64,000 nucleotides of DNA, taken from assembly GCA_902779285.1 (NCBI GenBank), contig CACZAZ010000006.1, positions 7,705 through 71,704 on the forward strand. Reading direction: 5' to 3'. Origin of the DNA: an uncultured Ruminococcus sp. (GTDB taxonomy: Bacteria > Bacillota > Clostridia > Oscillospirales > CAG-272). The number at the start of each line of letters is the position of its first letter. Position 1 is the stretch's first letter. The notes under the pieces were generated by a model that saw nothing but the letters and a program-made list of their open reading frames with translations, did no database searches and was not told where the DNA came from. The position numbers and the translations under genes were made by a program. Shown here piece after piece: positions 1 through 37,965 of this stretch.

Positions 1-1046
1 TGCGGGTGATGGACGTTATACCTTTCAATATGACCATGATGGACGAAAAAGCGTCCAGACTGGCGCCCGCGATCATCGGAGCGGACGAGGAACTCGGCGC
101 GGGCGAGGAACTCACGCCCCGGTTCTTCGACCTCGTGGAAACGGGCGGATGGACCTGGGACGTCCTCGGCAAACTCTGCGAGGCGGCGTGGGTCGATACC
201 GACGGCGACGGACAGGATTCGATCGACGACGTTCTCGGCATCATCGCCGACGGATACGGCGGGATCAACGCCGCCAGCTTCGTCTACTGTTGCGGCGAGC
301 CGCTGACCGAGTTATATACGATCGAGGACGAGTCGAGCCCCTATAACGGTCAACAATGGATCAAGTTCCGCAACGATTCGTCGGGGCTCAACCGGATCTA
401 CGACGCAGTGAAGAGCGTCTTCGAGGGCTCCGGCTCCCTGACGACGAGCCATCCCTTTGGCGGCAACTCGCCCGCGCAGCCGGGCGCCACGTACCACCAC
501 ACCAAGTTCGGCGCCGGCGAAATACTGTTCGGAGGCATCTGCACGCTCGGGGCGCTCGAGGACGAGGCGTTCCAGAATATGACCGACCTCTACTCGGTGG
601 TCCCCTGTCCGAAACTTGACGAAACGGGCTCGTATAACACGATCATCATCAACCAGGGCGACGTCGGCGTGATCAACGTCAACGCCAATCCCCGCAAGGC
701 GAGGGTCCTCTCGGCGTTCATCCAGTACTGCACCGAGAATTCCGGCGAGATCCGCGAACAGTTCCTGCAGATCGTGACCAAATACAAGACCACGACCTAC
801 AACCAGGGCACCGACCGGATGCTCGAGATCATCTACAACGGCGTCCTCTACGGGCGCGACAAGCAGGTCGACGACCTGAACAAAGACCCGCGCTGGCACC
901 GGATCATGATGTCGGAGAAATTCGTCGCGGGATCAGACGTCATCTCGCAGCGGTACGCCGCCGCCCTCTCCCAGAAGCAGGCGCTGCTCGATAGCGTTAT
1001 GAAGACCTGGTACACGCTACCGAAATCCGAACCCGCGGCAAACTGA
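1..1046 (+). CDS. SBP-like lipoprotein paralog, 5'-truncated by the window edge
   Basis: The frame is open from position 3 with no upstream stop. It is colinear with the C-terminal two thirds of the 1279-3006 and 23948-25657 products (VIPFNMTMMD, WVDTDGDGQDSIDDVLGI, YNQGTDRML, KTWYTLPK). Confidence 0.85.
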   Translation, partial: RVMDVIPFNMTMMDEKASRLAPAIIGADEELGAGEELTPRFFDLVETGGWTWDVLGKLCEAAWVDTDGDGQDSIDDVLGIIADGYGGINAASFVYCCGEPLTELYTIEDESSPYNGQQWIKFRNDSSGLNRIYDAVKSVFEGSGSLTTSHPFGGNSPAQPGATYHHTKFGAGEILFGGICTLGALEDEAFQNMTDLYSVVPCPKLDETGSYNTIIINQGDVGVINVNANPRKARVLSAFIQYCTENSGEIREQFLQIVTKYKTTTYNQGTDRMLEIIYNGVLYGRDKQVDDLNKDPRWHRIMMSEKFVAGSDVISQRYAAALSQKQALLDSVMKTWYTLPKSEPAAN

Positions 1047-1151
1047 CCCGATCCCCTCCCCGCTTTCCGGGGGTCGGCGGGCTCATTGCACAATGTTCGG
1101 ACCGAATTCTTGCTCAATTTACTCATTTGTAGTCAAAAACGGTCAAATCTA

Positions 1152-1180
1152 TTGCTTTTTTAAAATGCGTGCGGTAGAAT
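1152..1180 (+). promoter_or_regulatory. sigma-A type promoter for 1279-3006
   Basis: TTGCTT (1152-1157), exact 17-nt spacer, TAGAAT (1175-1180). Confidence 0.5.
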
Positions 1181-1278
1181 TATATCATTGGGAGAACTGT
1201 CGGCGGGAGCGTGCCGCAAGGTCAAACCGTTCCGCTCGCACCGAAAACGAACGTCCCGAATCAAAAAGGAGAAATCGT

Positions 1279-3006
1279 ATGAAAAAGAGAATCGTATCCC
1301 TGCTCCTGATCCTGTGTACCGTCTTCTCGATCCTCGCGCTCGCGTCTTGCGGTAAGGACGGCGATAAAGCGGAAACGACGGCGCAGGCGGCGCCCGGCGC
1401 GACCGAGACCGAAACGGAAGCAACGACCGTCGAGGTCACCACCGACAAGTGGGAAGAACTCGCGGAGAACGTCACGATGATCACGGAGCGCGACCGCAAA
1501 CTGAAGATCGCGATCGACATCAGCCGCAACGGTGTGAAAACGTCGAAAAACGACACGTACCTGAAGGGTCCCGACGAAGTCGTGGCAGACCTCACGCCCG
1601 AGATCGAAGTGATGGTCTACGAGCGGAACAAGGCGGCGAAAGACCTGTTCGGGCTGACGATCACGTACGAAACCTGGTCCGAATACTACGAGAAGCAGGC
1701 GCCGAAGATCGACACCCTGGTCAAGGGGAACGCCGAGGACGCCCCCGATCTGTTCGTCTGTCTGCTCTACGACCTGAACCTGGAACTTCTGAACGGATCG
1801 TTCAAGGATATCTGGTCGCTCCCCGGCTCGTTCTTCGATTTTTCGACCGAGGGCTGGCTGGAAGTGTGGATGGAGAATATGTCGCTCACCGGCGACCGCG
1901 CCTACGTCCTCGGCGGCGACTATTTCCTCGAACTTCTCCGCTCGGTGATGGTCGTCCCCTTCAATATGGATCTGATGGACGCGAACGCCTCCAAACTCGC
2001 TCCGATCATTCTGAAAGAGGGTGATTCGCTCGGTGCGGGCGAAGAACTCACGACCTACTTCTTCGACCTCGTGGACGAGGGTCGCTGGACCTTCGACGTG
2101 CTCGGCAAACTCTGCGAGGCGATCTGGGCCGACACCGACGGCGACGGGAACGACTCGATCGGCGATACGCTCGGCATCATCGCGGACGAGTACGGAGGAA
2201 AGACCGCGGTCGGTTTCATCTATTCCTGCGGCACTCCGCTGACCGAGCAGTACGTCGTCGAGGACGAGTTGAGCGCGTATAACGGCAAACAATGGATCAG
2301 ATACGCCGCCAGTTCCGAAGACGCGGGGCTGAACGACATCTTCGACGCGGTGTCGAAGGTGTTCAAGGGTAAAGGTTCCCTCTCGACCAGCGCCACCCAC
2401 TCCAGCAACACGCCCGAGGCGCCCGGTAAGGCGTATCACCTGACGAAGTTCGCCCAGAACGAAATTCTCTTCCTCGGCGCCGATCTGCTCGGCGACCTGG
2501 AGGACGACAAGATCAAGCAGATGACCTACCTGTATTCGGTGGTCCCCTGCCCCAAGATCGACGCCGACAAGGACACGGATTATAACACGATCATCGACAA
2601 CACCGGCGACGCGGGCGCCATCAACGTCAATACCAATCCCCGCAAGGCAAGAGCCCTCTCCGCGTACATCCAGTACTGCACCGAACATTCCGCCCATATC
2701 CGCGATGAGTTCCTGCAGATCGTGACCAAGTACAGGACCACGACCTACAACCAGGGCACCGACCGGATGCTCGACATCATCTACGAGGGCATCCTCTACG
2801 GGCGCGACAAGGCGGTCGACGATCTGTTCGGCGTGATCGATCGTACCAACCGCTGGCACGATCTGATGAAGCACGAGGATCACGAAGGCGACTCCGGTTA
2901 CATCTCGTCGAAGTACGAAGCGGTCGTCGCGTCCAAGCAGGCTCGGCTCGACAATATGCTGAAGACCTGGTACACGCTGCCGAAGGTCGAACCCACGGCG
3001 AACTGA
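1279..3006 (+). CDS. extracellular solute-binding-protein-like lipoprotein (large LplA-like family 1 type)
   Basis: ATG at 1279 is preceded by AAAGGAG. Signal peptide with lipobox LALASC. The T/A/E-rich linker and the WxFD...DTDGDGNDSIGD motif are typical of large sugar SBPs. The upstream part of the tracked ORF (1093-1278) has no RBS. Confidence 0.8.
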   Translation: MKKRIVSLLLILCTVFSILALASCGKDGDKAETTAQAAPGATETETEATTVEVTTDKWEELAENVTMITERDRKLKIAIDISRNGVKTSKNDTYLKGPDEVVADLTPEIEVMVYERNKAAKDLFGLTITYETWSEYYEKQAPKIDTLVKGNAEDAPDLFVCLLYDLNLELLNGSFKDIWSLPGSFFDFSTEGWLEVWMENMSLTGDRAYVLGGDYFLELLRSVMVVPFNMDLMDANASKLAPIILKEGDSLGAGEELTTYFFDLVDEGRWTFDVLGKLCEAIWADTDGDGNDSIGDTLGIIADEYGGKTAVGFIYSCGTPLTEQYVVEDELSAYNGKQWIRYAASSEDAGLNDIFDAVSKVFKGKGSLSTSATHSSNTPEAPGKAYHLTKFAQNEILFLGADLLGDLEDDKIKQMTYLYSVVPCPKIDADKDTDYNTIIDNTGDAGAINVNTNPRKARALSAYIQYCTEHSAHIRDEFLQIVTKYRTTTYNQGTDRMLDIIYEGILYGRDKAVDDLFGVIDRTNRWHDLMKHEDHEGDSGYISSKYEAVVASKQARLDNMLKTWYTLPKVEPTAN

Positions 3007-3017
3007 CCGACGTTTTC

Positions 3018-3049
3018 AAAAAAGCGCCCGCTCCGGCGGGCGCTTTTTT
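3018..3049 (+). terminator. rho-independent terminator (bidirectional shape)
   Basis: GCGCCCGC (3024-3031), loop TCCG, GCGGGCGC (3036-3043), then TTTTTT. An A-run lies upstream. Confidence 0.8.
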
Positions 3050-3085
3050 GAATGATATCCGCTCGCTTCAGGCGTCCTATATGCG

Positions 3086-3197
3086 CAATTCACGAACGGC
3101 GCAGCCGTTCAATTCACGCCGCGAAGCGGCAATTCACGCGGTGCGTCGCACCGCAATTCATGCCCGCAGGGCAATTCATTCTCTTTTCGTGAATTAA
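3086..3197. repeat. Array A: five copies of CAATTCA(C/T)(G/T), each separated by a different perfect mini-hairpin
   Basis: Words start at 3086, 3110, 3130, 3154 and 3172. The separators are AACGGC-gca-GCCGTT, CCGC-gaa-GCGG, CGGTGC-gtc-GCACCG and CCC-gca-GGG. An inverted word GTGAATT lies at 3189-3195. Confidence 0.9.
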
Positions 3198-3221
3198 CGG
3201 CGTCAGCCGGCACGCCGCCCC

Positions 3222-3250
3222 TTGACAGATCGGGAAAGATAAGGTATGAT
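3222..3250 (+). promoter_or_regulatory. sigma-A type promoter for 3318-5051
   Basis: TTGACA (3222-3227), 17-nt spacer, TATGAT (3245-3250). Confidence 0.6.
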
Positions 3251-3317
3251 AAATGCGACGGGTCATTCTCTCCGCTGCGCGGGGAGCGGACCACGAACGT
3301 AGGGTAGGAAAAACGGA

Positions 3318-5051
3318 ATGAAAAAGTATTTTCGAGGCGGAAGCATCGTCGTCGTCGGAAAATATCACGAGGAAGTGATCTACGACGTGCTCTCGAACGA
3401 TCTGCAAGTTACCTTTGACGGCAAGGGCGGGATCGCGGAGTGTACGTCGAGCACGCAAACGGGCGCGCACGCTCTGACGAGTACGGCGAGCGTTTATTCC
3501 GGCAAGAAAAAAATCGACGCGTTCTGCGAGAAGAGCGTCAAAATGATCGGGCGGACGCAGACGATCGTTCTGAAAACGGGCGACGTCAGGATCACGATCT
3601 ATCAGTTCGTTCCGGCAAAAGAGCGGGCGATCTTCTACGAGATCTCTGCGAACAAAGCGGGCGACTACGATTTCGTTCTAGATCTGGATCACAGGAGAAC
3701 GACCCGGTTCGACTTCGCCGCGAACGTCGAAAGCCGGTTCGTTCCCGAAAGCGCGTTGCTCTACGTTCACACGAATAAAAGAGCGCGGCTGGTTCTTTCC
3801 TGCGGTACCGACGCTGCCTACTGCCGCAGATTGCTGCCCCGTTTCGCCGAGTTCGAGGGGCAGGTCGAGGACGAGATCGCGAGTGTGAAGATCCCCGCGA
3901 CAGCGAGAAGCGAAAAGGACAAAGCCGTCTATACGTCAAGTTACCTTTGCGCGCTCGAGAACTATACGGAGATCGGGGACTACAAGTGCTTTTCCGAGAG
4001 CGTCGACCGAACCTATTTCCGCGACTCCTACTGGACGGTCCTGCCCATGTATAAGAGCCGTCCCGATCTCGTCCGGTGTCAGATTCTGACGCTCGCGCAC
4101 GGCGTCGAGGAGAACGGGGACTGTCCCGCCGCCGTGACGGTTGAATGGAACCCGTTTTTCCGCAATCAGTACGACAGCCCGAGTTTCTTCGTTTTGATGG
4201 TCTACGACTATATCAATCACACCGGCGACTTTTCGATCCTTGACGAAACGGTGAGGGGAAGAACGGTTTTCGATTGGTGCGCGTTGGCAGTCGACAAACT
4301 CGCCCTTTACGAGGACGAAACCCACCTGATCGTCAAAGCGGGGCCCCACAACAATCGCGACTGGGCGAACGAGGTCAACCGGACGGGCTACGTTACGTAC
4401 GTCGAACTCCTCTACGCCCGCGCCCTCGAGTGCCTCTCCCGCATTGCCGGAACGCGCGACGCCTCGCGCGCCCGCCGCTATCGCGCGATGTACGAACGGA
4501 CCAAAACCGCGATCAACGCCCTGCTCTGGGACGACGAAAAGGGATACTACGTCAACTACAGGGACGGCGATTTCGTCGAGGACAATCTTTCGGTCGACAC
4601 GATCCTCGCCGTCTTGTTCGGGATCGCGGATAAGGATAAGACCGAGCGGCTGCTCGACAACGTTTCGGCGATCCTCGAGAGCCGGAACAATAAGAGCCAA
4701 GGGGCGGGCGACTTCGGCGTGATGTGCGTTTATCCCTTCTACCGCGGATTGGGCAGGACTTTTCACAGAAATCTGCAGGACTACAAGTTCCACAACGGCG
4801 CCGTCTGGCCGTATTGGTCGGCGCTGGTCGCCTACGCGCAATTGATGCACGGACGGGATTATACTTACGCCCTGACTTCCTCTTTCGATTGGAGCGTCAA
4901 ACACGGGAGTTACACCCCGGTCGAATACTATTCGCCGCTTCATCCGTGCGGCGGGTGTCCGCAGGCGAGCGACGGCGACGTCGCGTGGGTTTACGATTGG
5001 AGGGACGGCGACTTTTTCAAGGAAAACGAAACCGTCTGGGGGACGAAATAA
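3318..5051 (+). CDS. six-hairpin (alpha/alpha)6 glycoside hydrolase, glycogen-debranching/GDE_C-like
   Basis: 577-aa ORF. Motifs FRDSYWT, YDSPSFFVLMVYDY, NRDWANEV and FHNGAVWPYW resemble amylo-alpha-1,6-glucosidase-type catalytic domains. It is a paralog of 8268-10013. Confidence 0.7.
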   Translation: MKKYFRGGSIVVVGKYHEEVIYDVLSNDLQVTFDGKGGIAECTSSTQTGAHALTSTASVYSGKKKIDAFCEKSVKMIGRTQTIVLKTGDVRITIYQFVPAKERAIFYEISANKAGDYDFVLDLDHRRTTRFDFAANVESRFVPESALLYVHTNKRARLVLSCGTDAAYCRRLLPRFAEFEGQVEDEIASVKIPATARSEKDKAVYTSSYLCALENYTEIGDYKCFSESVDRTYFRDSYWTVLPMYKSRPDLVRCQILTLAHGVEENGDCPAAVTVEWNPFFRNQYDSPSFFVLMVYDYINHTGDFSILDETVRGRTVFDWCALAVDKLALYEDETHLIVKAGPHNNRDWANEVNRTGYVTYVELLYARALECLSRIAGTRDASRARRYRAMYERTKTAINALLWDDEKGYYVNYRDGDFVEDNLSVDTILAVLFGIADKDKTERLLDNVSAILESRNNKSQGAGDFGVMCVYPFYRGLGRTFHRNLQDYKFHNGAVWPYWSALVAYAQLMHGRDYTYALTSSFDWSVKHGSYTPVEYYSPLHPCGGCPQASDGDVAWVYDWRDGDFFKENETVWGTK

Positions 5052-5072
5052 AAAGGAATTCCGAAACGGAAC

Positions 5073-5111
5073 GGAGACGAGAGCCGACGAGGCGAATCGT
5101 CTCCTTTTTTT
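5073..5111 (+). terminator. rho-independent terminator
   Basis: GGAGACGA (5073-5080) pairs with TCGTCTCC (5097-5104), followed by TTTTTTT. Confidence 0.8.
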
Positions 5112-5208
5112 ATCGGAACCGCTCCGAACCGGTCGGATCAACAGCCGGATCCGATCAATACCATTCTCGGGAAACCATCGGGAACGGCGTTGCGTCGGAT
5201 AGTTTATA

Positions 5209-5239
5209 TTGCACAATTATCAGAACGCAGATTGTGCAA
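5209..5239. promoter_or_regulatory. inverted repeat TTGCACAAT-N13-ATTGTGCAA, candidate operator
   Basis: Perfect 9-bp arms at 5209-5217 and 5231-5239, about 125 nt upstream of the 5363 lipoprotein gene. ATTGCACAAT also occurs at 1085-1094, upstream of the 1279 gene. Confidence 0.4.
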
Positions 5240-5362
5240 CACGACGATTTTTTCTTTGAAAACGCGCGCAGTATTGTTTTTTTGAAATTGCGGTGCTATA
5301 ATAAGGGCAAAGGGGGAGCCTTTCGCTTTTACCTTGACAAATAAAAAAAGGAGAAAAAACCC

Positions 5363-6640
5363 ATGAAGAAAACACTTGCACTGATTCTTGCGCTCGTTAT
5401 GGTCGCGTTTGCGTTCGCGTCCTGCGGAAAGAAGAATGCTGACGCGACCACCGCCGCCGGGACGACCGCCGCCGGGACTGCGGCAGCGCAAACGACCGCC
5501 GCCGAGACGACCGCCGCTCCGACCCAACCCACGTGCCAACACGTCCCCGAAGATATGTGGCGCGTTACCACTCCCGCGACCTGCTCCACCCCCGGCGTTG
5601 AGAAGCTGTACTGCAAAGAGTGCGGCGAGGAGCTTCAGGAACGTCCGATCGAGATCGATCCCAACGCGCACAAGGTCGACGAATGGACTGTGACCGAGGC
5701 TGCCAATATGCTTAACCCGACCGGCAGCCGCACCGGCGTGTGTACGCTCTGTCAAAACAACGTTGTCGAGGATATTCTCTGGGAGGGACCGACCATCAAG
5801 GCGTTCGACTCCATTTCGGAAAGGTACGGGATGGCTGAAGTGAAGCTTGAGGACGTTCGCGGCGACGACCACTTCTACCCGACCGAGGTGAATCCTGAGG
5901 GCAAAGATCTGTACGTCGAGTTCTCGATCCTCTGGAACGAGACGGTCCTGAACTTTGCCGGAGCCAACGATGGTGACACTAAAGACGATCCCTACATGGT
6001 CGGACGTTTTTACGACGGAAAACCGTTCTACTACCTCTCCCCCGTTCCCGGTATGGACTATAGCGACGCCAACTTCTCCGGCGCGTTCGAGTGGACGGGG
6101 AACTTCGCGACGACGATCTCCGACTCCGAAGTGACCACGCCGGCGACCATGTGCGGCGCGGCTCCGAACTACTCCGACTATCCGAACATCGCGGGTACCG
6201 ACGAGGCGAACCCCGAATACGGCTGGCACCGCTTCGGCATCCGGTATCATCTGGACCTGCTCGACGGCAAAACGGGTGCAGATCTGAAAGACTACGTCGG
6301 AATCGTCACCGCTTTCGTCGACGGCACCGCGATCTTTAAAATGTCGACCGGCAGCGACGGTATGCAGAACTGGGAATCCATGCTGTTCAAAGCCGAATCC
6401 GACGGTGAGGGCGGCATCGTTTACAGCGACGCCGGGGACATCGTCGTCCCGTTCATTATGAACAAGTCGAACACGAAGGCGGACACGGTCGCTTACCTCG
6501 CATTCGCCGACGTGTACGTAACCTGCGGCACGGACTTCGTGATGAAGGTCGAGAAGGTTGCTTCTCCCGAAGCCGATACGCTCGAAGTTGCCGAGGGCGT
6601 CGAGATCCCGGCTCCCGTCTACTTCAAACTCGCAGACTGA
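5363..6640 (+). CDS. lipoprotein of unknown function with two H..W..ATC..G..CxxC Cys-motif repeats
   Basis: RBS AAAGGAG. Signal peptide with lipobox FAFASC. T/A-rich linker, two Cys4-type motifs (CQHV...CSTPG...CKEC and HKVDEW...CTLC), then a domain of about 300 aa with no family I recognise. Confidence 0.8.
   Translation: MKKTLALILALVMVAFAFASCGKKNADATTAAGTTAAGTAAAQTTAAETTAAPTQPTCQHVPEDMWRVTTPATCSTPGVEKLYCKECGEELQERPIEIDPNAHKVDEWTVTEAANMLNPTGSRTGVCTLCQNNVVEDILWEGPTIKAFDSISERYGMAEVKLEDVRGDDHFYPTEVNPEGKDLYVEFSILWNETVLNFAGANDGDTKDDPYMVGRFYDGKPFYYLSPVPGMDYSDANFSGAFEWTGNFATTISDSEVTTPATMCGAAPNYSDYPNIAGTDEANPEYGWHRFGIRYHLDLLDGKTGADLKDYVGIVTAFVDGTAIFKMSTGSDGMQNWESMLFKAESDGEGGIVYSDAGDIVVPFIMNKSNTKADTVAYLAFADVYVTCGTDFVMKVEKVASPEADTLEVAEGVEIPAPVYFKLAD
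5447..5521 (+). repeat. 15-nt tandem repeat (5 units) encoding the T/A-rich lipoprotein linker
   Basis: The units are ACCACCGCCGCCGGG, ACGACCGCCGCCGGG, ACTGCGGCAGCGCAA, ACGACCGCCGCCGAG and ACGACCGCCGCTCCG. They lie in frame inside 5363-6640. Confidence 0.7.
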
Positions 6641-6800
6641 TCATTTCTTGTAAAACGACCGGGGCTGCGCCGGACGGCTCTCTCCTCCTTTCCGTCCCCG
6701 ACAGCCCCGGGATTTCCGTTACGGCGGGAGCGCAGATTTGCGCTTCCGCTTCGTTTTGCGAGTGATCGGGCAATCCTCCGCAAAAACCGTCGCTTGCGTA

Positions 6801-6829
6801 TTGCTTTTTCACAACAATTGGTTTATAAT
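6801..6829 (+). promoter_or_regulatory. sigma-A type promoter for 6896-8239
   Basis: TTGCTT (6801-6806), 17-nt spacer, TATAAT (6824-6829). Confidence 0.6.
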
Positions 6830-6895
6830 AAAAAAGACCGCAAGAACAGAGTTCGACCCGCCTCGCCCACGGGCGGGAAAAGAAAGGATCCAGCT

Positions 6896-8239
6896 ATGAA
6901 ACTCCATTTTGATTTTGCGAAAACGACGGGAAAGATCAAGCCGATGCACGCCGTCGGGCAGCCCCCCGCGGATATCTCGGACGACGGGATCGAACACTCG
7001 ATGTTTCACTATCTGACCGAGGCGAATATCCCCTATTGCCGTATGCACGACACCTGCGGGAATTACGGGGCGAACGTGTTCGTCGACGTTCCGAACCTCT
7101 TCCGCGATTTCGACGCCGACGAGAACGATCCCGCGTCCTACGATTTCGCCTTCACCGACGCGCTGTTTGAGAAGATGGTCGAGGCGAAGCTCGAGCCCTA
7201 TTTCCGGCTCGGCGTGACCATCGAGAACGCGCACATGATCAAATCCTACCGCATCTTCCCGCCGAAGGACCCCGAAAAGTGGGCGCGGATCGCTGAACAT
7301 ATCGTCCGCCACTACAACGAGGGGTGGGCTGACGGCTATCGCTACGGCATCACCTACTGGGAGGTCTGGAACGAGCCGGATAACGAGGAATCGATCGAAC
7401 GGAACAATATGTGGAAGGGTACGAAGGAGCAGTACTACGACCTCTACGCCGCTACCGCGAAACGCCTGAAAGCGTGCTTCGGAGACACGATCAAGGTCGG
7501 CGGCTACGCGAACACGGGACTCTACCTCGGCTATATGGAGCAGGACGAGAAGTACAAGGAACCGCACGAGGTCACACATTGGGAAGAGCGCGCGATCTAC
7601 CACACCGAATTCCTGCGCGGCTTCCTTCGCCGCGTCAAGCGCGATAACCTCCCGCTCGACTTCTTCTCGCACCACAGTTATCTGTCGGTCGAGCGCACCA
7701 AACAGGTGCAGGCGTACGCCGAAAAGATCCTCGCGGAGGAGGGCTTCCCCGATATCGAGATCCACCTCAACGAGTGGAACACCGACCGCACGCTCGAGAC
7801 CCGCGGAACGACGAGAGCGGCGGCGGACGTGACCGCGATGATGATCGCGATGCAGGCGACGAAAATGTCCCTGATGTGCTACTACGACGCGCGTTTCAGC
7901 ACCAGCGTTTACGCGGGATTTTTCAATCCCCTGACCGAAAAGCCCTTCTGCACCCTTTACGCATTCACGGCGTTCGGCAAGCTCTACGCCCTCGGGCAGG
8001 AGGTCGAAACGACCGGCTCCGGTAAGGACGGGCTCTACGCGCTGGCGGCGACCGACGGGAAAACGCGCGGCGTGCTGATCACGAATATCGGAGACGAGAA
8101 GACCGTCGAAACCGACCTCGGCAGCGGCTATACCGCCTATCGGATCGACGAGAAGCATTTTCTGACCAAGACCCGCGTCTCGACCAAATCGATCAAACTC
8201 AAAAAGTACGACACGCTCTACCTCGAGAAGAACGGCTGA
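6896..8239 (+). CDS. TIM-barrel glycoside hydrolase, clan GH-A (GH39-like)
   Basis: ATG at 6896 after GAAAGGA. YWEVWNEPDN (acid/base region) and HLNEWN (nucleophile region) are typical of clan GH-A. No signal peptide. Confidence 0.6.
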   Translation: MKLHFDFAKTTGKIKPMHAVGQPPADISDDGIEHSMFHYLTEANIPYCRMHDTCGNYGANVFVDVPNLFRDFDADENDPASYDFAFTDALFEKMVEAKLEPYFRLGVTIENAHMIKSYRIFPPKDPEKWARIAEHIVRHYNEGWADGYRYGITYWEVWNEPDNEESIERNNMWKGTKEQYYDLYAATAKRLKACFGDTIKVGGYANTGLYLGYMEQDEKYKEPHEVTHWEERAIYHTEFLRGFLRRVKRDNLPLDFFSHHSYLSVERTKQVQAYAEKILAEEGFPDIEIHLNEWNTDRTLETRGTTRAAADVTAMMIAMQATKMSLMCYYDARFSTSVYAGFFNPLTEKPFCTLYAFTAFGKLYALGQEVETTGSGKDGLYALAATDGKTRGVLITNIGDEKTVETDLGSGYTAYRIDEKHFLTKTRVSTKSIKLKKYDTLYLEKNG

Positions 8240-8267
8240 TACGGCTCCGGGAAAAGGGATCAACGGT

Positions 8268-10013
8268 ATGGAAACGAGTTTTCAAAACGGGGCGATCGTC
8301 GCCCGGGGCAAGTTCCACGAGGACGCGGTCTGGGACGTTTTCGCAAACGACCTGCGCGTCCGGTTCGACGGCAAGGGCGGGGTCACCGAATATTCGATCT
8401 GCAACCATCCGGGCAGTTACCTGCGGAGGAGTTTTCTCAACGTCTTCGTGAACGGGGTGAAACTCGACGCGTTCACGGATAAGACCGTCGTGATGATCGG
8501 ACGGACGCAGAGGATCTTGCTCGACGCTTTCGGCGGGACGGTCGAGGTTTATCAGTTCATTCCGAAGCGCGGCAACGCCCTGTGCTTCGAGATCACGGCG
8601 AAAAAAGCGGCGAAATACGACTTCGTCTTTGATTTCGGGCAGGCAGTAAAGCACTTTTCCTACGCCGCGGACGCCGAAAACGAGTATATCCCCGAGAACT
8701 CCTCGGTCTATCTGCACACCGGGCGGAGCGTGCGGTTCGTTTGCTCCTACGGCACGGACGAGGCAAACTGCAAAGAGATCCTCTCCCGCTTCTCCGCCCT
8801 GAAAAAAGAGGTCGAGGACGAGATCGGGAGCGTGATGATCCCCGCGACGGCGAAGACCGAAAAGGACAAGGCGCTCTACGTTTCGAGCGTTTTCTGCGCG
8901 CTCGAGAACTATAAGGAGATCGGGGACTACAAGGGCTTTTCCGCCGGGTGCAGCTACGTCAATCCCGTCCGCACCTATTTCCGCGACTCCTATTGGACGA
9001 TGCTCGCGATGTATAAGGACTATCCCCGCCTCGTTCGGAACGAGATCCTGACCCTGTGTCACGGGATCGAAGAGAACGGCGACTGTCCCTCCGCCGTGAC
9101 CTACGAACTGGAACTGCATTGGAGGAATCATTACGACAGTCCGAGCTTTTTCGTTCTGATGGTCTACGACTATATCAACCGGACGGGCGACTTCTCGATC
9201 CTCGACGAGACGGTGAACGGCAGAACGGTCTACGATTGGTGCTTGCTGGTCGTCGACAAACTCTCCGCGTACGAGGACGAGACCCACCTGATCGTCAAGG
9301 AGGGACCGTTCAACAAGCGCGACTGGGCGGACGAGGTCAACCGGATCGGCTACGTCACCTACCTCGAACTGCTCTACGCCCGCGCGCTGTTCTGCGTTTC
9401 ACGGATCGCGGGGAAACGGGACGAAAAACGCGCCGCGAAGTATTACGGGATGCACCTGCAGACGAAAGACGCGATCAACGCGCTTCTCTGGGACGACGAA
9501 AAAGGATACTATATCAATTATAAGAACGGCGACTTCGTCGAGGACAACCTTTCGGTCGATACGATCCTCGCGGTGCTCTTCGGGATCGCGGATAAGGATA
9601 AGACCGAGCGGCTGCTCGACAACGTTTCGGCTCTGCTTGAATCGAAAAACAACAAGATCCAGCGGGCGGGCGACTTCGGCGTAATGAGCGTCTTCCCCTT
9701 CTACAAAGGGGAGGATCGGTACCACAACAAATCGTCGCAGGACTACGAATACCACAACGGCGCCGTCTGGCCGTATCTTGCCGCCCTCGTTGCCTATGCC
9801 GAGGCGCAGAACGGGCGGGATTACGAATACGCCCTGACTTCCTCCTTCGATTGGAATATCCCGCGGGGGAACTACACCCCGATCGAGTACTATTCCCCGA
9901 TCCGTCCCGACGGCTCGCTCCTGCAGGCGTGGAGCAGCGACGCCGCCTGGGTCTACGATTGGCAGAGCGACGACTTTTTCAAGGAAAACCAAGCCGTTTG
10001 GAAAACCGAATGA
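8268..10013 (+). CDS. six-hairpin glycoside hydrolase, paralog of 3318-5051
   Basis: 581 aa, colinear with the 3318-5051 product over its full length (FRDSYWT, YDSPSFFVLMVYDYINRTGDFSILDETV, YHNGAVWPY). Confidence 0.7.
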   Translation: METSFQNGAIVARGKFHEDAVWDVFANDLRVRFDGKGGVTEYSICNHPGSYLRRSFLNVFVNGVKLDAFTDKTVVMIGRTQRILLDAFGGTVEVYQFIPKRGNALCFEITAKKAAKYDFVFDFGQAVKHFSYAADAENEYIPENSSVYLHTGRSVRFVCSYGTDEANCKEILSRFSALKKEVEDEIGSVMIPATAKTEKDKALYVSSVFCALENYKEIGDYKGFSAGCSYVNPVRTYFRDSYWTMLAMYKDYPRLVRNEILTLCHGIEENGDCPSAVTYELELHWRNHYDSPSFFVLMVYDYINRTGDFSILDETVNGRTVYDWCLLVVDKLSAYEDETHLIVKEGPFNKRDWADEVNRIGYVTYLELLYARALFCVSRIAGKRDEKRAAKYYGMHLQTKDAINALLWDDEKGYYINYKNGDFVEDNLSVDTILAVLFGIADKDKTERLLDNVSALLESKNNKIQRAGDFGVMSVFPFYKGEDRYHNKSSQDYEYHNGAVWPYLAALVAYAEAQNGRDYEYALTSSFDWNIPRGNYTPIEYYSPIRPDGSLLQAWSSDAAWVYDWQSDDFFKENQAVWKTE

Positions 10014-10025
10014 CCAAACGACCGA

Positions 10026-10056
10026 AACGGCGCTCCGCTTGACGGAGCGCCGTTTT
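10026..10056 (+). terminator. rho-independent terminator
   Basis: AACGGCGCTCCG, loop cttga, CGGAGCGCCGTT, then TT. Confidence 0.75.
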
Positions 10057-10116
10057 AATGGTGGGATAAGGGGAGCGCCGCCCCGTGAAAAAAGTGAAAA
10101 AAAACGGTTTAAGACC

Positions 10117-10145
10117 TTGTAAAAATCTTTCCTATGTTGTATAAT
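10117..10145 (+). promoter_or_regulatory. sigma-A type promoter for glyA
   Basis: TTGTAA (10117-10122), 17-nt spacer, TATAAT (10140-10145). Confidence 0.65.
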
Positions 10146-10188
10146 TATTTGGAATATGCCAAACGGAAACGAAAAGAGAGGTACCCCC

Positions 10189-11442
10189 ATGATTTCTGAA
10201 ATGCTGAATCGCCTGACCGAGTCCGATCCCGAGATCGGCGCCGCCATCAAAGCCGAGTTCGAACGCCAGAAAAACGGGATCGAGCTGATCGCGTCGGAGA
10301 ACTTCGTCTCCGAGCCCGTCCTGCTCGCCGCAGGCACCATCCTCACCAACAAGTACGCGGAGGGTTATCCCGCGCACCGGTACTACGGCGGATGCGAAAA
10401 GGTCGACGTCGTGGAGAACCTCGCGATCGAGCGGGCGAAAAAGCTCTTCGGATGCGATTTCGCGAACGTCCAGCCCCACAGCGGCTCGCAGGCGAATACC
10501 GCCGTTTACGTCGCGCTGCTGAACACCGGCGACACGGTCCTCGGTATGTCGCTCTCGGACGGCGGACACCTGACCCACGGAAGCCCGGTCAACCTCTCGG
10601 GCAAATACTATAACTTCGTTCCCTACGGCGTCGACAACGAGACCCACCGCATCGACTACGACAAGGTCGAAGCGCTGGCGAAGGAAAAACAGCCCAAACT
10701 GATCGTGGCGGGCGCGTCCGCCTATCCCCGCGTCATCGACTTCGAGCGGCTCGCCGCGATCGCGCACGGCGTCGGGGCGTACCTGATGGTCGATATGGCG
10801 CACATCGCGGGGCTTGTCGCCGCGGGGCTTCATCCCTCTCCCCTGCCCTACGCCGACGTCGTCACCACCACGACCCATAAGACCCTTCGCGGTCCGAGAG
10901 GCGGCTTGATCCTCACGAACAACGAGGAGATCGCGAAGAAGATCAACAAGGCGATCTTCCCGGGCATCCAGGGCGGTCCCCTGCTCCATATCATCGCGGC
11001 GAAAGCCGTCTGCTTCGGCGAGGCGCTGAAGCCCGCCTTCAAAGCGTATCAGAAACAGATCGTTCTGAACGCCAAGACCCTTGCCGATCAGTTCGTGAAA
11101 GAGGGCTTTGAACTTGTTTCGGGCGGCACCGACAACCACCTGATGCTGCTGGATCTCCGTCCCTTCCGGATCACCGGGCGCGAACTCGAGGTCCGGCTCG
11201 ACGAGGTGCATATCACCGTCAATAAGAACGCCATCCCGAACGACCCCGAGAAACCCACCGTCACGAGCGGCATCCGGGTCGGCACCCCCGCCGTCACCTC
11301 GCGCGGGATGAAGGAAGACGAGATGAAGAAGATCGGGCGTCTGATCGCCCTGACCGCCGCCGATTTCGAGAAGAACGCCGATACCGTCCGGGCGGAGGTC
11401 GCGGAACTTTGCCGCCGTTTCCCGCTCTATGAAAACCTCTGA
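10189..11442 (+). CDS. glyA: serine hydroxymethyltransferase
   Basis: [15 protein letters not shown] and the [19 protein letters not shown]-lysine motif. ATG at 10189 after AGAGAGG. Confidence 0.97.
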
Positions 11443-11908
11443 CGCCGCGGCTCTCGTCGCCCTTCTCAAACGAAAGGGGCTGACCGTTTCGACGGCGGAA
11501 TCCTGCACCGGGGGCCTCGTCGCCTCGTCGATCGTCGACGTACCGGGCGCGAGCGCCGTTTTTCCGGGCGGCGCCGTGACCTACGCCGCGTCGGTCAAGA
11601 CCGCTTTGCTCGGCGTGCCGGCGGATCTGATCGAGACGCGCGGCGTGGTCAGCCACGACGTCGCCGCCGCGATGGCGAAGGGAGCGCAAAAGCGCTTCGG
11701 CACCGACCTCGCCGTGTCCGTCACCGGGGTCGCGGGACCCGACGGAGGGACCCCCGAAACGCCGGTCGGCTGCGTCTATATCGGAGTAGCGATCAAAGAT
11801 AAGACCGTCACGTTCCGCGAGGATATCCCGGGCGACCGGGAAGAGGTCAGACGCGGCGCCGCCGAACGGGCGATCCGCCGTTGTCTTGCCGAACTGACAA
11901 ACGAATGA
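11429..11908 (+). CDS. pncC: CinA C-terminal domain / nicotinamide-nucleotide amidohydrolase PncC-like
   Basis: [25 protein letters not shown] and [12 protein letters not shown] motifs. Overlaps the glyA stop by 14 nt. Confidence 0.85.
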
Positions 11909-11951
11909 TTTTTCTCCCACGGGAGAAACGGAGAAAGGAAGCCGGACTGCT

Positions 11952-13016
11952 ATGAAAAAGTTCAGAAGAATCGGCGTACTGACGTCGGGGGGAGACGCCC
12001 CCGGCATGAACGCGGCGATCCGCGCCGTCACCCGCACCGCGATCGCGCACGGTGTCGAGGTCATGGGGATCTACCGCGGGTACAGCGGACTGATCGACGG
12101 GGATATCAAACAACTGGGTATCCGCGACGTCTCGAACTGTATCAACCACGGCGGCACCATGCTCTATTCCGACCGCTGCCCCGAGTTCAAGACCGAGGCG
12201 GGTATGGCGAAAGCCGTCGAGACCTGCCGCCGTCTTGAGATCGACGGGATCGTCGCCATCGGCGGCGACGGTACTTTCCGCGGCGCGACCGACCTGACCA
12301 ACCACGGGATCCCCTGCGTGGGTCTTCCCGGCACCATCGACAACGATATCACCTCGACCGATCTTTCGATCGGTTTCGATACCGCGATGAACACCGTGAT
12401 CGAGATGGTCGACCGCCTGCGCGACACCTGCGAATCCCACGCGCGCTGCAACGTCGTCGAGGTCATGGGCAGGGACGCAGGCGATATCGCCCTGCGTTCG
12501 GGCATCGCCTCGGGCGCGACCGCCGTCGCCATCCCCGAAATTCCGTTCGACGCCGACGGCACGATCGAGAAGATCAAGCGTTCCAAGGCGCTCGGCAAGC
12601 GGAACTTCATCATCATCGTCTCGGAGGGCTGCGGACACGATTTCGGTCCGAGTTTCACCGAGCGCGTCGAGCGTGAGACCGGGGTCGAATCGCGCTTCGC
12701 GAGATTGGCGCACGTCGTCCGCGGCGGCAACCCGAATCTTGCCGACCGTCTGCTCTCGTCCCTGATGGGCGTCTACGCCGTCGAGCAGCTGCTGGAAGGC
12801 AAATCGAACATCGTCATCTGCTCGCGCGCCGGAAAGATCGTTTCGACCGAGATCAACTACGCGCTGGTGCTCGACCGGATGTATAAGGACAAGCTGAAGC
12901 CGGGGGATCTCGATCCCTTCACGGCGGAACAGGTCGACGAGATGAAGCGCTTCTGCGAGAAGAAACGCGCCGATCTCGTTTCGCTCTACGAAAAGGTCGA
13001 CCTTCTCGGATTGTGA
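11952..13016 (+). CDS. pfkA: ATP-dependent 6-phosphofructokinase
   Basis: IGVLTSGGDAPGMNAAIRAV, GGDGT and PGTIDNDI motifs. Confidence 0.95.
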   Translation: MKKFRRIGVLTSGGDAPGMNAAIRAVTRTAIAHGVEVMGIYRGYSGLIDGDIKQLGIRDVSNCINHGGTMLYSDRCPEFKTEAGMAKAVETCRRLEIDGIVAIGGDGTFRGATDLTNHGIPCVGLPGTIDNDITSTDLSIGFDTAMNTVIEMVDRLRDTCESHARCNVVEVMGRDAGDIALRSGIASGATAVAIPEIPFDADGTIEKIKRSKALGKRNFIIIVSEGCGHDFGPSFTERVERETGVESRFARLAHVVRGGNPNLADRLLSSLMGVYAVEQLLEGKSNIVICSRAGKIVSTEINYALVLDRMYKDKLKPGDLDPFTAEQVDEMKRFCEKKRADLVSLYEKVDLLGL

Positions 13017-13444: not shown

Positions 13445-13460
13445 TTTCACAAAAAAACGA

Positions 13461-13494
13461 AACGCCTCCCGCAAAGGGAGGCGTTTTGATTTTG
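13461..13494. terminator. bidirectional rho-independent terminator
   Basis: AACGCCTCCC, loop gcaaa, GGGAGGCGTT, then TTGATTTT. An A-run lies upstream. It sits between convergent genes. Confidence 0.8.
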
Positions 13495-13543
13495 GAAAAA
13501 GGGAATATTCGGAGTGGGACGGGCATAGGTTGTACCGTCCGCG

Positions 13544-14888: not shown

Positions 14889-14890
14889 CC

Positions 14891-27034: not shown

Positions 27035-27064
27035 CGCCGCCTGCCGGATAACCGGCAGGCGGCG
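27035..27064 (+). terminator. terminator-like hairpin after 25710-27029
   Basis: CGCCGCCTGCCGG, loop ataa, CCGGCAGGCGGCG. Perfect 13-bp stem with only a weak T tract (it runs into Array B). Confidence 0.6.
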
Positions 27065-27182
27065 CTTCACTTTTGCCGAAGGCAAAAACATCACGATCGC
27101 CGGCGCTCCGTTTCGGAGTACCGGCGATCACTTCACTTTGCGCCGTGGCGCAAAACTTCACTTTGTTCGCGCCCGCGCGGAC
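27065..27182. repeat. Array B: four copies of C(T/A)TCAC, each followed by a different hairpin
   Basis: Words at 27065, 27089 (CATCAC), 27131 and 27156. Hairpins: TTTTGCC-gaa-GGCAAAA; GATCGCCGG[...CTCCG-ttt-CGGAG...]CCGGCGATC; TTTGCGC-cgtg-GCGCAAA; GTTCGCG-cccg-CGCGGAC. Confidence 0.85.
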
Positions 27183-36222: not shown

Positions 36223-36262
36223 CCCCCCGACGAAAAAAGCGTCGGCGGGGAACGAAGCGCGA

Positions 36263-36378
36263 GTTATGAGACCCCCGTCGGGGTCGTTATGGTTTTGCCT
36301 TCCGTTTTTCGGACGGCAAAAGTTATGAGTTTGGCTTACGCCAAACGTTATGAATTCGGCTGTCGCCGAATGTTATAT
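36263..36378 (+). repeat. Array C: five copies of GTTATG(A/G)(G/A), each separated by a different hairpin
   Basis: Words at 36263, 36286, 36322, 36347 and 36372 (degenerate GTTATAT). Hairpins: ACCCC-cgtc-GGGGT; TTTTGCCTTCCG-ttttt-CGGACGGCAAAA; TTTGGC-ttac-GCCAAA; TTCGGC-tgtc-GCCGAA. Confidence 0.9.
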
Positions 36379-36416
36379 ATTCGATACTGCAAACTAATTA
36401 TGGTTAAAAACAAAAA

Positions 36417-36457: not shown

Positions 36458-36814
36458 TTACAAGGTGTTCGTTTTAAGAGTTTTTACCGACGATACCAAC
36501 ATTCTGCGCAGCTCGATACAACTCTTTTGAAACTCGTCAAAGACCTCTTCTTTGATGCAATCGGTTTCTTTCAACAATTCGAGCCAATACTCGCTCTCAT
36601 TGCATTCTTTCAGCGCAATTTCAAGCTTTGAAACAAAGTCTTTCGTTCCCTGCGCATATTGCGCTTCGTGAAGGTTTGCGCCAACAGAGGTACCGGCGCG
36701 AAGCAACTGATTGAGCAGGACGGATTCGACCCGTTCCTCTTTAAGTTTTCGACAAAGAAAGACAATGCTTTTGGCAAAGTCTTTGGATTTGACTCGCAAA
36801 ACGCTATCGTTCAT
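36458..36814 (-). CDS. four-helix-bundle protein (23S rRNA intervening-sequence protein / Avd-like family)
   Basis: Family-typical motifs LLRAGTSVGANLHEAQYAQGTKDFVSKLEIALKECNESEYWLELL. Visibly lower GC than all neighbouring genes. Confidence 0.85.
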   Translation of the reverse strand: MNDSVLRVKSKDFAKSIVFLCRKLKEERVESVLLNQLLRAGTSVGANLHEAQYAQGTKDFVSKLEIALKECNESEYWLELLKETDCIKEEVFDEFQKSCIELRRMLVSSVKTLKTNTL

Positions 36815-36838
36815 TGTCCCCTCAAAACCAAGTTTTCA

Positions 36839-36984
36839 GTTATGAGTCCTGCTTGCGCCGAACGTTATGATATGATCGCCGGTTACTTCCAACGTGCCGT
36901 CAGGCACTCATAACTGCGCGCAGCGCATCATAACTCTAAACTCGCCGTCAGGCGATCATAACTGCAAAACGCGCTGCGTTTTGC
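36839..36984. repeat. Array D: GTTATGA x2 on plus, then TCATAAC x3 (the inverted word) alternating with different hairpins
   Basis: GTTATGA at 36839 and 36864. TCATAAC at 36908, 36928 and 36956. Hairpins: GTGCC-gtca-GGCAC; TGCGC-gca-GCGCA; TCGCC-gtca-GGCGA; GCAAAACGC-gct-GCGTTTTGC, which abuts the guaA stop. Confidence 0.9.
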
Positions 36985-37965
36985 TTACTCCCACTCGATC
37001 GTGGCGACGGGTTTCGGGGACAGGTCGTACAGGACGCGGTTGACGCCCTTGACCTCCGCGAGGATCCGGTCGACGATGTGCTTGAGTAGCGGATAGGGGA
37101 TCTCCTCGATCGTGGCGCTGGTGGCGTCGACCGAGTTCACCGCACGGATGATGACCGGCCAAGCCCAGGTGCGCTTGTTGTCCACGATACCGGTGGAGCG
37201 GTAGTCGGGAACGGTGGTGAAGTACTGCCACACCTTGCCGGCGAGCCCGTTCTTCTCGAACTCCTCGCGGAGGATGGCGTCGGATTCGCGCACCGCTTCG
37301 AGACGGTCGCGGGTGATGGCGCCGGTGCAGCGCACGCCGAGTCCGGGACCCGGGAACGGCTGACGGTTGACCATCCCGTCGGGAAGACCGAGTTCACGGC
37401 CGACGCAGCGGACCTCGTCCTTGTAGAGGAACTTGACCGGCTCGACCAACTCGAACTGCAGATCGTCGGGAAGACCGCCGACGTTGTGGTGCGCCTTCAC
37501 GCCGACGCTCTCGAGGATGTCGGGGTAGATGGTGCCTTGTCCCAGAAACTTGATCCCCTCCTGCTTTCTCGCCTCTTCCTCGAAGACGCGGATGAACTCG
37601 GCGCCGATGATCTTGCGCTTCTGTTCGGGATCGCTGACGCCCGCCAGCTTATCGAGGAAGCGGTCGACGGCGTCGACGTAGACGAGGTTGGCGTTCAGCT
37701 GATCGCGGAAAACGCGGATCACCTGTTCGGGCTCTCCCTTGCGGAGCAGACCGTGGTTGACGTGGACGCAGACCAGGTTCTTGCCGATCGCACGGATCAG
37801 AAGCGCGGCGCAGACCGAAGAATCGACGCCGCCCGACAGAGCGAGCAGGCACTTGCCGTCCCCGATCTGTTTTTTGAGCGCGGCGACCTGTTCGTCAATG
37901 AACGCTTTGGCGAGTTCGGGGGTGTTGATCCGTTTCATGCTTTCGGGGCGGACGTTGTTTTGCAT
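36985..37965 (-). CDS. guaA: GMP synthase ATP-pyrophosphatase unit only (no glutamine amidotransferase domain)
   Basis: The ATG at 37965 has a GGAGGA RBS. SGGVDSSV PP-loop and C-terminal dimerisation domain ending IEWE. 326 aa. The 220 upstream codons of the tracked ORF are antisense to 38158-38721 and do not resemble a GATase. Confidence 0.88.
   Translation of the reverse strand: MQNNVRPESMKRINTPELAKAFIDEQVAALKKQIGDGKCLLALSGGVDSSVCAALLIRAIGKNLVCVHVNHGLLRKGEPEQVIRVFRDQLNANLVYVDAVDRFLDKLAGVSDPEQKRKIIGAEFIRVFEEEARKQEGIKFLGQGTIYPDILESVGVKAHHNVGGLPDDLQFELVEPVKFLYKDEVRCVGRELGLPDGMVNRQPFPGPGLGVRCTGAITRDRLEAVRESDAILREEFEKNGLAGKVWQYFTTVPDYRSTGIVDNKRTWAWPVIIRAVNSVDATSATIEEIPYPLLKHIVDRILAEVKGVNRVLYDLSPKPVATIEWE

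Follow-up and report, generated by a model that had tools for sequence, protein, structure and literature searches.

Array A of an uncultured Ruminococcus sp. as a candidate copy of a REP-like intergenic repeat related to the Gut-1 motif

We analyzed a 64,000-nucleotide stretch of DNA from an uncultured Ruminococcus sp. (contig CACZAZ010000006.1, positions 7,705 to 71,704 of the forward strand; hereafter, the window) and, specifically, array A, an intergenic run of short conserved words alternating with perfect hairpins at positions 3086..3180 of the plus strand. With moderate confidence, we interpret array A as a one-armed copy of a multi-copy, fast-evolving intergenic structural repeat of uncultured gut Clostridia that acts on single strands, resembles the repetitive extragenic palindromes (REP) and bacterial interspersed mosaic elements (BIME), and is closely related to the Gut-1 RNA motif (Rfam RF01706). 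The unit of this family consists of a 7-nt linker (AAnTTCAC on one strand, GTGAAnT on the other) followed by a short perfect hairpin bounded by G and C, with a C-G pair closing the loop and, on the AAnTTCAC strand, a loop of the GNA or GNNA type. Units with this syntax are spread across genomes, are preferentially located at gene 3' ends, above all in gaps between convergent genes and next to terminators, and turn over between and within arrays.

Array A comprises five copies of the word C-AATTCAY-G/T and four hairpins, that is, n hairpins and n+1 words. The words, reported by a repeat finder as five GCAATTCACGC-like copies, begin at 3086, 3110, 3130, 3154 and 3172, with spacings of 24, 20, 24 and 18 nt; words 1-3 are CAATTCACG, word 4 is CAATTCATG and word 5 is CAATTCATT. 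All four spacers are perfect palindromes with 3-nt loops, namely, GAACGGC-gca-GCCGTTC (3094-3110), GCCGC-gaa-GCGGC (3118-3130), GCGGTGC-gtc-GCACCGC (3138-3154) and TGCCC-gca-GGGCA (3161-3173), the stems being 7, 5, 7 and 5 bp long when the G at the end of a word and the C of the next word are included. Because the last G of each word pairs with the first C of the following one, the unpaired linker is the 7-mer AATTCAC, and the hairpins are closed by G...C pairs. On the minus strand, the array reads as three GUGAAUU and two AUGAAUU linkers with four hairpins. This anatomy, a conserved linker with variable perfect hairpins and the same word starts, had been given in a preliminary description of this DNA and was recovered both from the sequence itself and by the repeat finder. 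The inverted word that, according to the same description, closes the array at 3189-3195 is indeed present and extends over 10 nt (TTCGTGAATT, 3186..3195, plus strand); it is 100% complementary to AATTCACGAA at 3087-3096, is able to pair with any of the direct copies, and closes a multi-hairpin loop in the predicted minimum-energy folds. Directly 3' of the inverted word, there is an extra small hairpin, CGGC-gtca-GCCG (3198..3209, plus strand).

A chance origin of this arrangement was rejected. The word CAATTCAYG has four matches in the window, all of them within array A, compared to 0.59 expected, and arrays of a 7-mer with hairpin spacers (defined as three or more copies spaced by 14-45 nt, with at least two hairpin spacers) were found at two loci in the window but in only 2 of 200 dinucleotide shuffles of it (mean 0.01), so that the comparison with shuffled sequence proposed in the preliminary description comes out in favor of a real element. 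The hairpins of array A also appear in the predicted folds of either strand (RNA z-scores: -4.1, plus strand; -2.7, minus strand); neither RNA nor DNA folding energies tell the two strands apart.

A family of word-hairpin arrays in gut Clostridia

A total of 185,579 species genomes were scanned for three occurrences of GTGAATT separated by gaps of 9-17 nt, and a stricter pattern was applied to metagenome contigs. Among the matches listed, to which all family-wide counts below refer, units sharing this syntax number in the hundreds in metagenome-assembled genomes (MAGs) of gut and rumen Clostridia, the true carriers of hairpin arrays including Candidatus Scatosoma, Clostridiales SIG403 and SIG406, and Clostridia RGIG4006 and RGIG4180. 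Pure tandem (GTGAATT)n and longer-period repeats, which make up many of the matches outside Clostridia, were left out of the statistics, which cover 91 arrays in 73 loci (denoted here by L numbers), with 252 units and 183 distinct hairpins. In ~94% of the units (252/267 in one parse), the spacer is bounded by an initial G and a final C, and the loop-closing pair is C-G in 147 of the 183 distinct hairpins. The loops are strongly skewed: on the GTGAAnT strand, 46 of 98 triloops are TNC and only 4 are GNA, and 36 of 70 tetraloops are TNNC with only 2 GNNA, compared to ~9% TNC and ~8% GNA among background hairpins at the same loci. On the complementary AAnTTCAC strand, these loops become C-GNA-G and C-GNNA-G, the signature of DNA mini-hairpins. 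Such mini-hairpins are extraordinarily stable, resist single-stranded DNA-binding protein (SSB) and exonucleases, and are found at single-strand DNA initiation sites; the melting temperature is 76.5 °C for d(GCGAAAGC) and 39 °C for its RNA counterpart (PMC13037366; PMC3201870).

Array A conforms to this syntax, with all four hairpins bounded by G...C and closed by a C-G pair, and with fitting loops in three of the four (GCA, GAA, GTC and GCA on the plus strand; TGC, TTC, GAC and TGC on the minus strand). The palindromes of array A, which the preliminary description considered unrelated, thus share G...C ends, the C-G closing pair and GNA/GNNA loops on one strand, and hairpin types recur between arrays. 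The origin by repeated cutting and hairpin repair that was also suggested there does not account for these observations because random scars would yield neither a shared syntax nor recurring hairpin types.

The full form of the element is bipartite, with a first arm of three to six [GTGAATT G-hairpin-C] units, an AT-rich centre (GTTRYGG...CCRYAAC), and a second arm of three to five [G-hairpin-C AATTCAC] units; it is present in L018, L044, L057, L062, L078, L081, L115 and L158. Array A has one arm and a single inverted word, without a centre. One-armed arrays are common as well, for example, L019 and L032, where ten units lie between two co-directional genes, and for 79 of the 91 arrays, there is no complementary partner array within 150 nt. 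The words of the two arms are sometimes non-complementary, the second arm carrying ATTTCAC in L043, ACTTCAC in L162 and ATATCGA (facing GTGAATT) in L078. Several full elements are adjoined by a gtcattctgagcgaagcgaagaatc-like motif (L018 at ~2120-2190 and 6960-6990, L078 at ~3380-3425, and L096), a hairpin with a GCGAAGC mini-hairpin in its loop, and in L081, L044 and L062, TGAGCGAAGCGAA itself acts as a "spacer" between words.

The contig carries three further arrays. Array C (27064-27161, or 27035..27161 with the terminator hairpin at 27035-27064, plus strand) lies between convergent genes and consists of the words GCTTCAC at 27064, ACATCAC at 27088 and ACTTCAC at 27130 and 27155, with hairpins at 27071-27087, 27095-27129 and 27137-27154; on the minus strand (GUGAAGU), it is placed between the stop codon of an asnS-like gene and the terminator. 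Array D, with the word ACTTCAC, was found outside the window, 4.1 kb upstream in the contig (L001, 2439-2567), and array B, described below, flanks a PF05635 gene at 36260-36985. The four arrays in ~71 kb would, by extrapolation, translate into the order of a hundred copies per genome. The preliminary description had reported recurrence of the architecture in the window, with a private word at each locus. The recurrence stands; the claim of private words is only partly right because arrays A, C and D share AAYTTCAC, the ACTTCAC of arrays C and D being one base off the AATTCAC of array A, and only the locus at 36260-36985 differs, with GTTATGA/TCATAAC. Moreover, the CGTGAATTG linker is used in many other genomes, and in a Bacteroidota MAG, copies of GTTATGA border a PF05635 gene.

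With respect to the neighboring genes, which were delineated by crude ORF (open reading frame) calls, 24 arrays lie between convergent genes and only 3 between divergent ones, a distribution indicating that the arrays, like REP elements, favor termination zones and stay away from promoter-only regions. In gaps between co-directional genes, the orientation is unbiased, with 7 sense and 5 antisense arrays. GC skew is weak (~-0.02), and the leading strand is not assignable from it. Array A itself is flanked, as described before, by a terminator and a promoter. The bidirectional intrinsic terminator, now delimited to 3015..3052 (previously 3018-3049), has 17-nt perfect arms and a 4-nt loop, lies between an A-run and a T-run, and would end the upstream plus-strand gene and, likewise, a minus-strand transcript of the array. 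The sigma-70-type promoter of the downstream glycosidase gene (3222..3250, plus strand; TTGACA, 17 nt, TATGAT) lies outside the repeat. 

This position just 5' of a strong -35/-10 pair, in a sugar-utilization cluster, raises the possibility that the five direct repeats are duplex-DNA sites of a transcription factor, for example, an AraC-type activator, controlling the glycosidase promoter 30-140 bp downstream. Comparison of orthologous loci largely refutes such an operator array. In L131-L135, where the glycosidase orthologs are 82% and 69% identical at the protein level, the promoter with TTGACA/TATAAT is retained, but the upstream gene is another one and there is no array; because these orthologs keep the promoter without the array, array A does not appear to regulate the neighboring glycosidase gene. 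In addition, the 18-24 bp spacing is out of helical phase, the prevalence of convergent over divergent gene contexts is at odds with operators, and duplex sites need no perfect palindromic spacers with a strand-specific loop motif. We therefore consider this explanation extremely improbable. As for the cluster itself, the array A neighborhood (positions 1-17000 of the window together with L001) encompasses five paralogous genes for ~575-aa proteins, at least three of them GH94-like/MGH1-like glycosidases, and a GH39-like gene; the putative "SBP-like" gene upstream of array A has no Pfam match.

At closer range, the array is conserved. In the orthologous locus of another sample, L130, identity is 98% both for the glycosidase at the protein level and for the aligned intergenic DNA, and the array is kept, along with the inverted word corresponding to 3186-3195, which reads GTGAATTG, and an identical copy of the small hairpin that follows it. 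Thus, of the conservation across orthologs considered in the preliminary description, only that at the strain level holds, the array being absent at 82% and 69% protein identity. Unit variation between strains, also raised there, was found: a single 11-nt indel creates or removes a whole perfect hairpin, GCGATC-ccc-GATCGC, before the first word, with the number of words unchanged. Comparisons among family members reveal further turnover, with blocks of units duplicated within the array in L032, two copies differing chiefly in their loops in L018, and common hairpin types in colinear order, with both gains and losses of units, in L166 and L177. This variability makes the arrays potential typing markers and likely trouble spots in the assembly of gut MAGs.

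How the arrays grow is relevant for a further explanation, which takes up the HUH-type processing suggested in the preliminary description and in which each unit is a minimal mobile element: an HUH enzyme (IS200/IS605-like or similar to RAYT, the REP-associated tyrosine transposases) would cut the linker on both sides of a hairpin and reinsert it beside another word, so that arrays grow unit by unit. The DNA mini-hairpin loop signature, the fixed polarity of word followed by hairpin, the n hairpins and n+1 words of array A, and the identical hairpin types in different arrays and genomes are all compatible with this scheme, and both REP with RAYT and IS608 use a hairpin beside a short single-stranded word. 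However, no HUH or transposase gene was found in the ~37 kb of the contig with called genes, and none was noticed beside any array; the only strain polymorphism is a hairpin indel that leaves the word count unchanged; the shared hairpins of L166 are colinear, which fits duplication of a whole array followed by indels; and hairpins of variable sequence would require purely structure-based recognition. Hence we judge unit-by-unit transposition decidedly unlikely.

Under the interpretation that we prefer, a REP/BIME-like structural repeat, slippage or unequal recombination between the identical linkers would expand, shrink and reshuffle the arrays. The element would work while its strand is single, that is, in DNA during replication or transcription and also in read-through RNA; the single strand would then form a row of very stable mini-hairpins exposing the repeated linker. 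Such a row could block 3' exonucleases or read-through, and the array might be a tolerated, possibly protein-recognized, structural repeat in termination zones, a role akin to that of REP/BIME; copying by a single-strand-specific enzyme is conceivable as well. The similarity to the REP, BIME and REPIN elements of Proteobacteria is substantial: all are abundant, extragenic and multi-copy, occupy gene 3' ends and convergent gaps, contain hairpins, form arrays with alternating orientation, and vary between strains. The difference lies in what is conserved. REP elements conserve the palindrome and vary the linker, whereas here the variable part is the stem, and what is conserved is the linker together with the syntax of loop and closing pair; a GTAG tag is also lacking, and the ~37 kb with called genes yielded no RAYT gene. 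Thus, array A shares with REP/BIME the enrichment of extragenic, multi-copy elements in convergent gaps and lacks the ~35-nt imperfect palindrome with a GTAG-type tag; the earlier conclusion that, by syntax, it is neither REP/BIME nor CRISPR is borne out.

Relation to the Gut-1 RNA motif

The Gut-1 RNA motif was first described in 2010 by Weinberg et al. (Genome Biol 11:R31, PMC2864571) as a "likely non-coding RNA" with 18 covarying positions, and nothing further was reported on its function. In the consensus, GUGAAAU linkers set apart three variable hairpins. The seed alignment consists of 43 sequences, all from human-gut metagenomes, and includes locus-specific linkers (GUGAAAU, GUGAUAU), second arms with hairpins and inverted words, and a GUUGCGG-type junction (PMC2864571 and its supplement). 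At the gathering level, Rfam searches gave no match in the whole window or in 20 related GTGAATT loci. However, the minus strand of array A (3181-3106) aligns to all 77 positions of the Gut-1 covariance model, with 29.0 bits against the gathering score of 50 bits, and with E-values of 4e-4 in a search of 171 nt and 0.15 in the whole window. Array D independently matched the full 77-position model with 31.4 bits. In searches by E-value, Gut-1 was the sole Rfam family matching array D and, a terminator artefact aside, the sole one for array A; the match to Thr_leader (34 bits, 3015-3092) and other weak Rfam matches are driven by the terminator hairpin and were set aside.

Array A displays the characteristic arrangement of Gut-1, three or more short hairpins split by a single-stranded RUGAnAU linker. 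The likeness further includes UUC/UGC-type loops on that strand, linkers that vary by locus, inverted second arms, the gut metagenome source, and the alignment over the full model. The differences are that the words here are GUGAAUU/GUGAAGU, not GUGAAAU/GUGAUAU, that array A consists of a single arm of four hairpins and lacks the centre, and that the loop statistics point to a structured strand opposite to the one annotated in Rfam. Judging from its sequence, then, array A is a sub-threshold relative of Gut-1 rather than a formal member, with an architecture that has already been described; by the criterion of the preliminary description, which named a match to a described family as refuting, this speaks against novelty, although the scores remain below the Rfam cut-off. 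What is new compared to Gut-1 comes as a set of leads, namely, the loop polarity, the REP-like behavior and the link to PF05635 genes.

Given that Gut-1 was proposed to be an RNA, one alternative is that array A functions as a minus-strand (GUGAAUU) small RNA (sRNA) or untranslated-region element that ends at the bidirectional terminator, with the linkers titrating or recruiting an RNA-binding protein, like the CsrB/RsmZ-type sponges, or serving RNase processing. Protein sponges classically present repeated single-stranded words between hairpins, the Gut-1 model covers the minus strand over its full length, Gut-1 has been classed as a likely non-coding RNA with 18 covarying positions (PMC2864571), and arrays A, C and D are each followed, in the GUGAAnU orientation, by a terminator-like hairpin and a U-run. 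Several observations argue against this explanation. There is no promoter-like site on the minus strand upstream of array A; arrays in co-directional gaps show no orientation bias (7 vs 5); full elements carry both orientations; and, at the glycosidase locus, the array is not conserved beyond the strain level. The covariation in Gut-1 arises from the alignment of different, non-orthologous hairpins and would be produced just as well by any collection of perfect palindromes. Furthermore, the loop signature favors the opposite strand, given that UNC loops have no known stability and GNA/GNNA loops do. On balance, a functional minus-strand RNA appears fairly unlikely; the more general suggestion in the preliminary description that array A is a multi-hairpin RNA 3' end or insulator is plausible.

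The loop statistics suggest that the unit has polarity and that the structured strand is opposite to the one modeled by Rfam, from which we infer that the element acts as DNA and not as RNA. Several points weigh against the interpretation of array A as a single-strand-acting, REP-like relative of Gut-1. Array A and the 20 related loci all score under the Gut-1 cut-off. The GTC loop, one of the four in array A, and the CCC loop of the extra hairpin in L130 misfit GNA. Mismatches in the stems show no strand bias (19 G-T/T-G vs 13 A-C/C-A), so the strand assignment derives from the loops only, and GNRA-type loops are favorable in RNA as well, so that the loops leave the choice between DNA and RNA undecided. 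The loci were chosen by one-word pattern searches, which biases the family-wide statistics towards GTGAATT, and the counts of gene contexts come from crude ORF calls. Finally, there is no transposase-like gene in the ~37 kb of the contig with called genes and Pfam labels.

These findings bear on the nature of Gut-1, which has been an orphan since 2010, known only from human-gut metagenome reads, and whose motif class can now be placed in Candidatus Scatosoma and related Clostridia MAGs. Instead of a single conserved RNA gene, this class comes across as a REP-like repeat that is both abundant and hypervariable, with a strict unit syntax and DNA mini-hairpin loops on the strand opposite to the Rfam annotation. 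If the single-strand DNA interpretation is true, Gut-1 may be misfiled as RNA, and new repeat dynamics become testable.

PF05635 cassettes and other repeat systems

Array B consists of two inverted arms around a minus-strand gene (36458..36814) for a 118-aa PF05635 protein (23S_rRNA_IVP, a four-helix-bundle, Avd-like family; E = 3e-26). Array B1 (36260..36385, plus strand), with five copies of GTTATGA/GTTATG at a period of 25 and hairpins in between, is the 3'-side arm, and array B2 (36830..36985, plus strand), with two GTTATGA, three TCATAAC and hairpins in between, is the 5'-side arm, inverted relative to B1 and ended by a terminator-like hairpin downstream of guaA. The PF05635 gene is AT-rich in a 60% GC genome, lies just downstream of guaA and is enclosed by the two arms. 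On these sequence features, the region 36260-36985 is an intervening sequence (IVS)-like cassette outside rRNA. IVS elements with a PF05635 ORF are regarded as selfish, and their terminal inverted repeats are cut by RNase III (PMC4990558). A match of array B1 and the terminator of the PF05635 gene (36294-36447, plus strand) to FuFi-1 (RF02986) was rejected as too weak and partial (25.5 bits, the cut-off being 59.6) and probably reflects the presence of hairpins and a terminator.

Inverted short repeats, mostly tandem 7-8-mers, flank all 10 PF05635 genes inspected, which span six phyla, Clostridia, Bacteroidota, Fibrobacterota, Spirochaetota, Cyanobacteriota and Chloroflexota. Examples of the flanks include (GTTATGA)4...(TCATAAC)5, (GTGAATT)7, (TTAGTGA)16 and (CTGGTCA)14; in a Muribaculaceae MAG (L116, 3540-3975), the flanks are pure tandem copies of the GTTATGA heptamer found in array B, and in a Chitinispirillaceae MAG (L025, 4250-5000), they are (GTGAATT)7. 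A further PF05635 gene with flanking inverted short repeats is located at 1-540 of L032, and the six plasmid genes in L256-L261, from five phyla, all have such flanks, mostly tandem. The Nostoc gene has a single 40-nt inverted repeat in place of tandem words. Several of the inspected genes lie inside operons, for example, between hsdS and hsdR. 

Array A could accordingly be a degenerate, ORF-less relative of these cassettes, in which the direct and inverted words pair in RNA and the interrupted stem is cut by RNase III, separating or destabilizing the flanking transcripts. Array B, with its inverted arms around a PF05635 gene, the consistent flanks of the inspected genes, one of them with (GTGAATT)7, and the RNase III cleavage of IVS termini (PMC4990558) are in line with this proposal, as are the inverted word that closes the predicted fold of array A and the centres of the full elements, which start with GTTRYGG, resembling the cassette heptamer GTTATGA. 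On the other side, most arrays, 79 of 91, have no complementary partner within 150 nt, some arms are non-complementary, such as ATATCGA facing GTGAATT in L078, and array A has five direct words and a single inverted one. Array A encloses no PF05635 ORF or any other ORF and is essentially one-armed, array B being the only one with the cassette organization, and the arms in other phyla are mostly tandem heptamers without hairpins. To our knowledge, helices of 7-9 bp interrupted by hairpins are poor substrates of RNase III. An IVS-type origin of array A is thus very unlikely in our view. What array B does share with array A is the word-hairpin syntax, and the Clostridial hairpin arrays may represent a hairpin-interspersed version of a much wider class of heptamer arrays.

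Extending the REP-like interpretation, the word-hairpin arrays, including Gut-1, and the inverted heptamer arms of PF05635 genes might all belong to one unrecognized cross-phylum system of single-stranded DNA repeats, in which C-GNA-G mini-hairpins would keep SSB and exonucleases off and a dedicated protein, perhaps the Avd-like PF05635 protein or an HUH-type enzyme, would recognize or cleave the heptamer. We consider this proposal speculative and unlikely as it stands; the class appears, in any case, to be linked to the inverted short-repeat arms, mostly tandem heptamers, of PF05635 genes in several phyla, and the system, if real, would represent a new mode of repeat propagation distinct from REP/RAYT, miniature inverted-repeat transposable elements (MITEs) and CRISPR.

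Other short direct repeats have been described that resemble these arrays in part. Tandem TAACTGA heptamers of unknown function occur in Beggiatoaceae, Cyanobacteria and Bacteroidetes (PMC4679880), and paired heptamer sites in Geobacter metallireducens (PMC2700814). Like the present words, these are 7-nt direct intergenic repeats, sometimes in pairs on opposite strands, and TAACTGA is one base off the TAACTCA register of array B; unlike them, they are arranged head-to-tail without hairpin spacers, and the Beggiatoa repeats lie just upstream of start codons. Among the matches listed (L010-L129), pure tandem (GTGAATT)n or (GTGAATTN)n without hairpins is widespread in Bacteroidota and other phyla. 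In L040, L126, L038, L045, L061 and L107, such tandem arrays are followed by a short centre and inverted (AATTCAC)n, and L047, a Bacillota MAG, has ~38 tandem copies.

Two other systems were rejected. With CRISPR, the arrays share regularly interspaced direct repeats and variable spacers; however, the repeats are 7-9 nt long (vs >23, about 23-50 nt), and in place of unique non-palindromic spacers of ~26-72 nt, there are self-complementary hairpins of 9-19 nt that are shared between arrays and are not foreign protospacers. Array A has no CRISPR-type features. In integron attC sites, inverted core sites RYYYAAC...GTTRRRY lie within each imperfect hairpin; here, the words are direct repeats outside the stem, and neither AATTCAC nor TCATAAC fits RYYYAAC.

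Downstream of guaA, synteny is not conserved in relatives at 85-97% identity, so no orthologous comparison is available for array B. At this position, L004 (GuaA 86% identical) has a 47-nt tandem repeat of about four copies (agagaatgagagcaggcccggcaaggaaagcgtcaatatc...; 4620-4810) and a GCATAAC...GTTATGC inverted pair around a terminator, and L002 and L005 have two copies of TTGATAAC or TTGACAAC. Insertions seem to be concentrated at the 3' end of guaA, which would make it a hot spot.

Two other repeats in the window are of a different kind. TTTTGCAA is present in three tandem copies at 51014, 51024 and 51036 (region 51014-51175), with more copies of TTTTGCG and TTGCAAAA located 5' of a promoter-like stretch that contains TATAAT. 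The repeats at 51014-51043 were rejected as members of the family because there are no hairpins between the copies, and for the same reason, they look like an operator or another kind of direct-repeat site. The second is a repeat with a 15-nt period (GACGACCGCCGCCGA, 4.8 copies, 5446-5517) within the ORF at 5363-6640, which corresponds to a low-complexity protein segment with a weak match to the Pfam family "New_glue".

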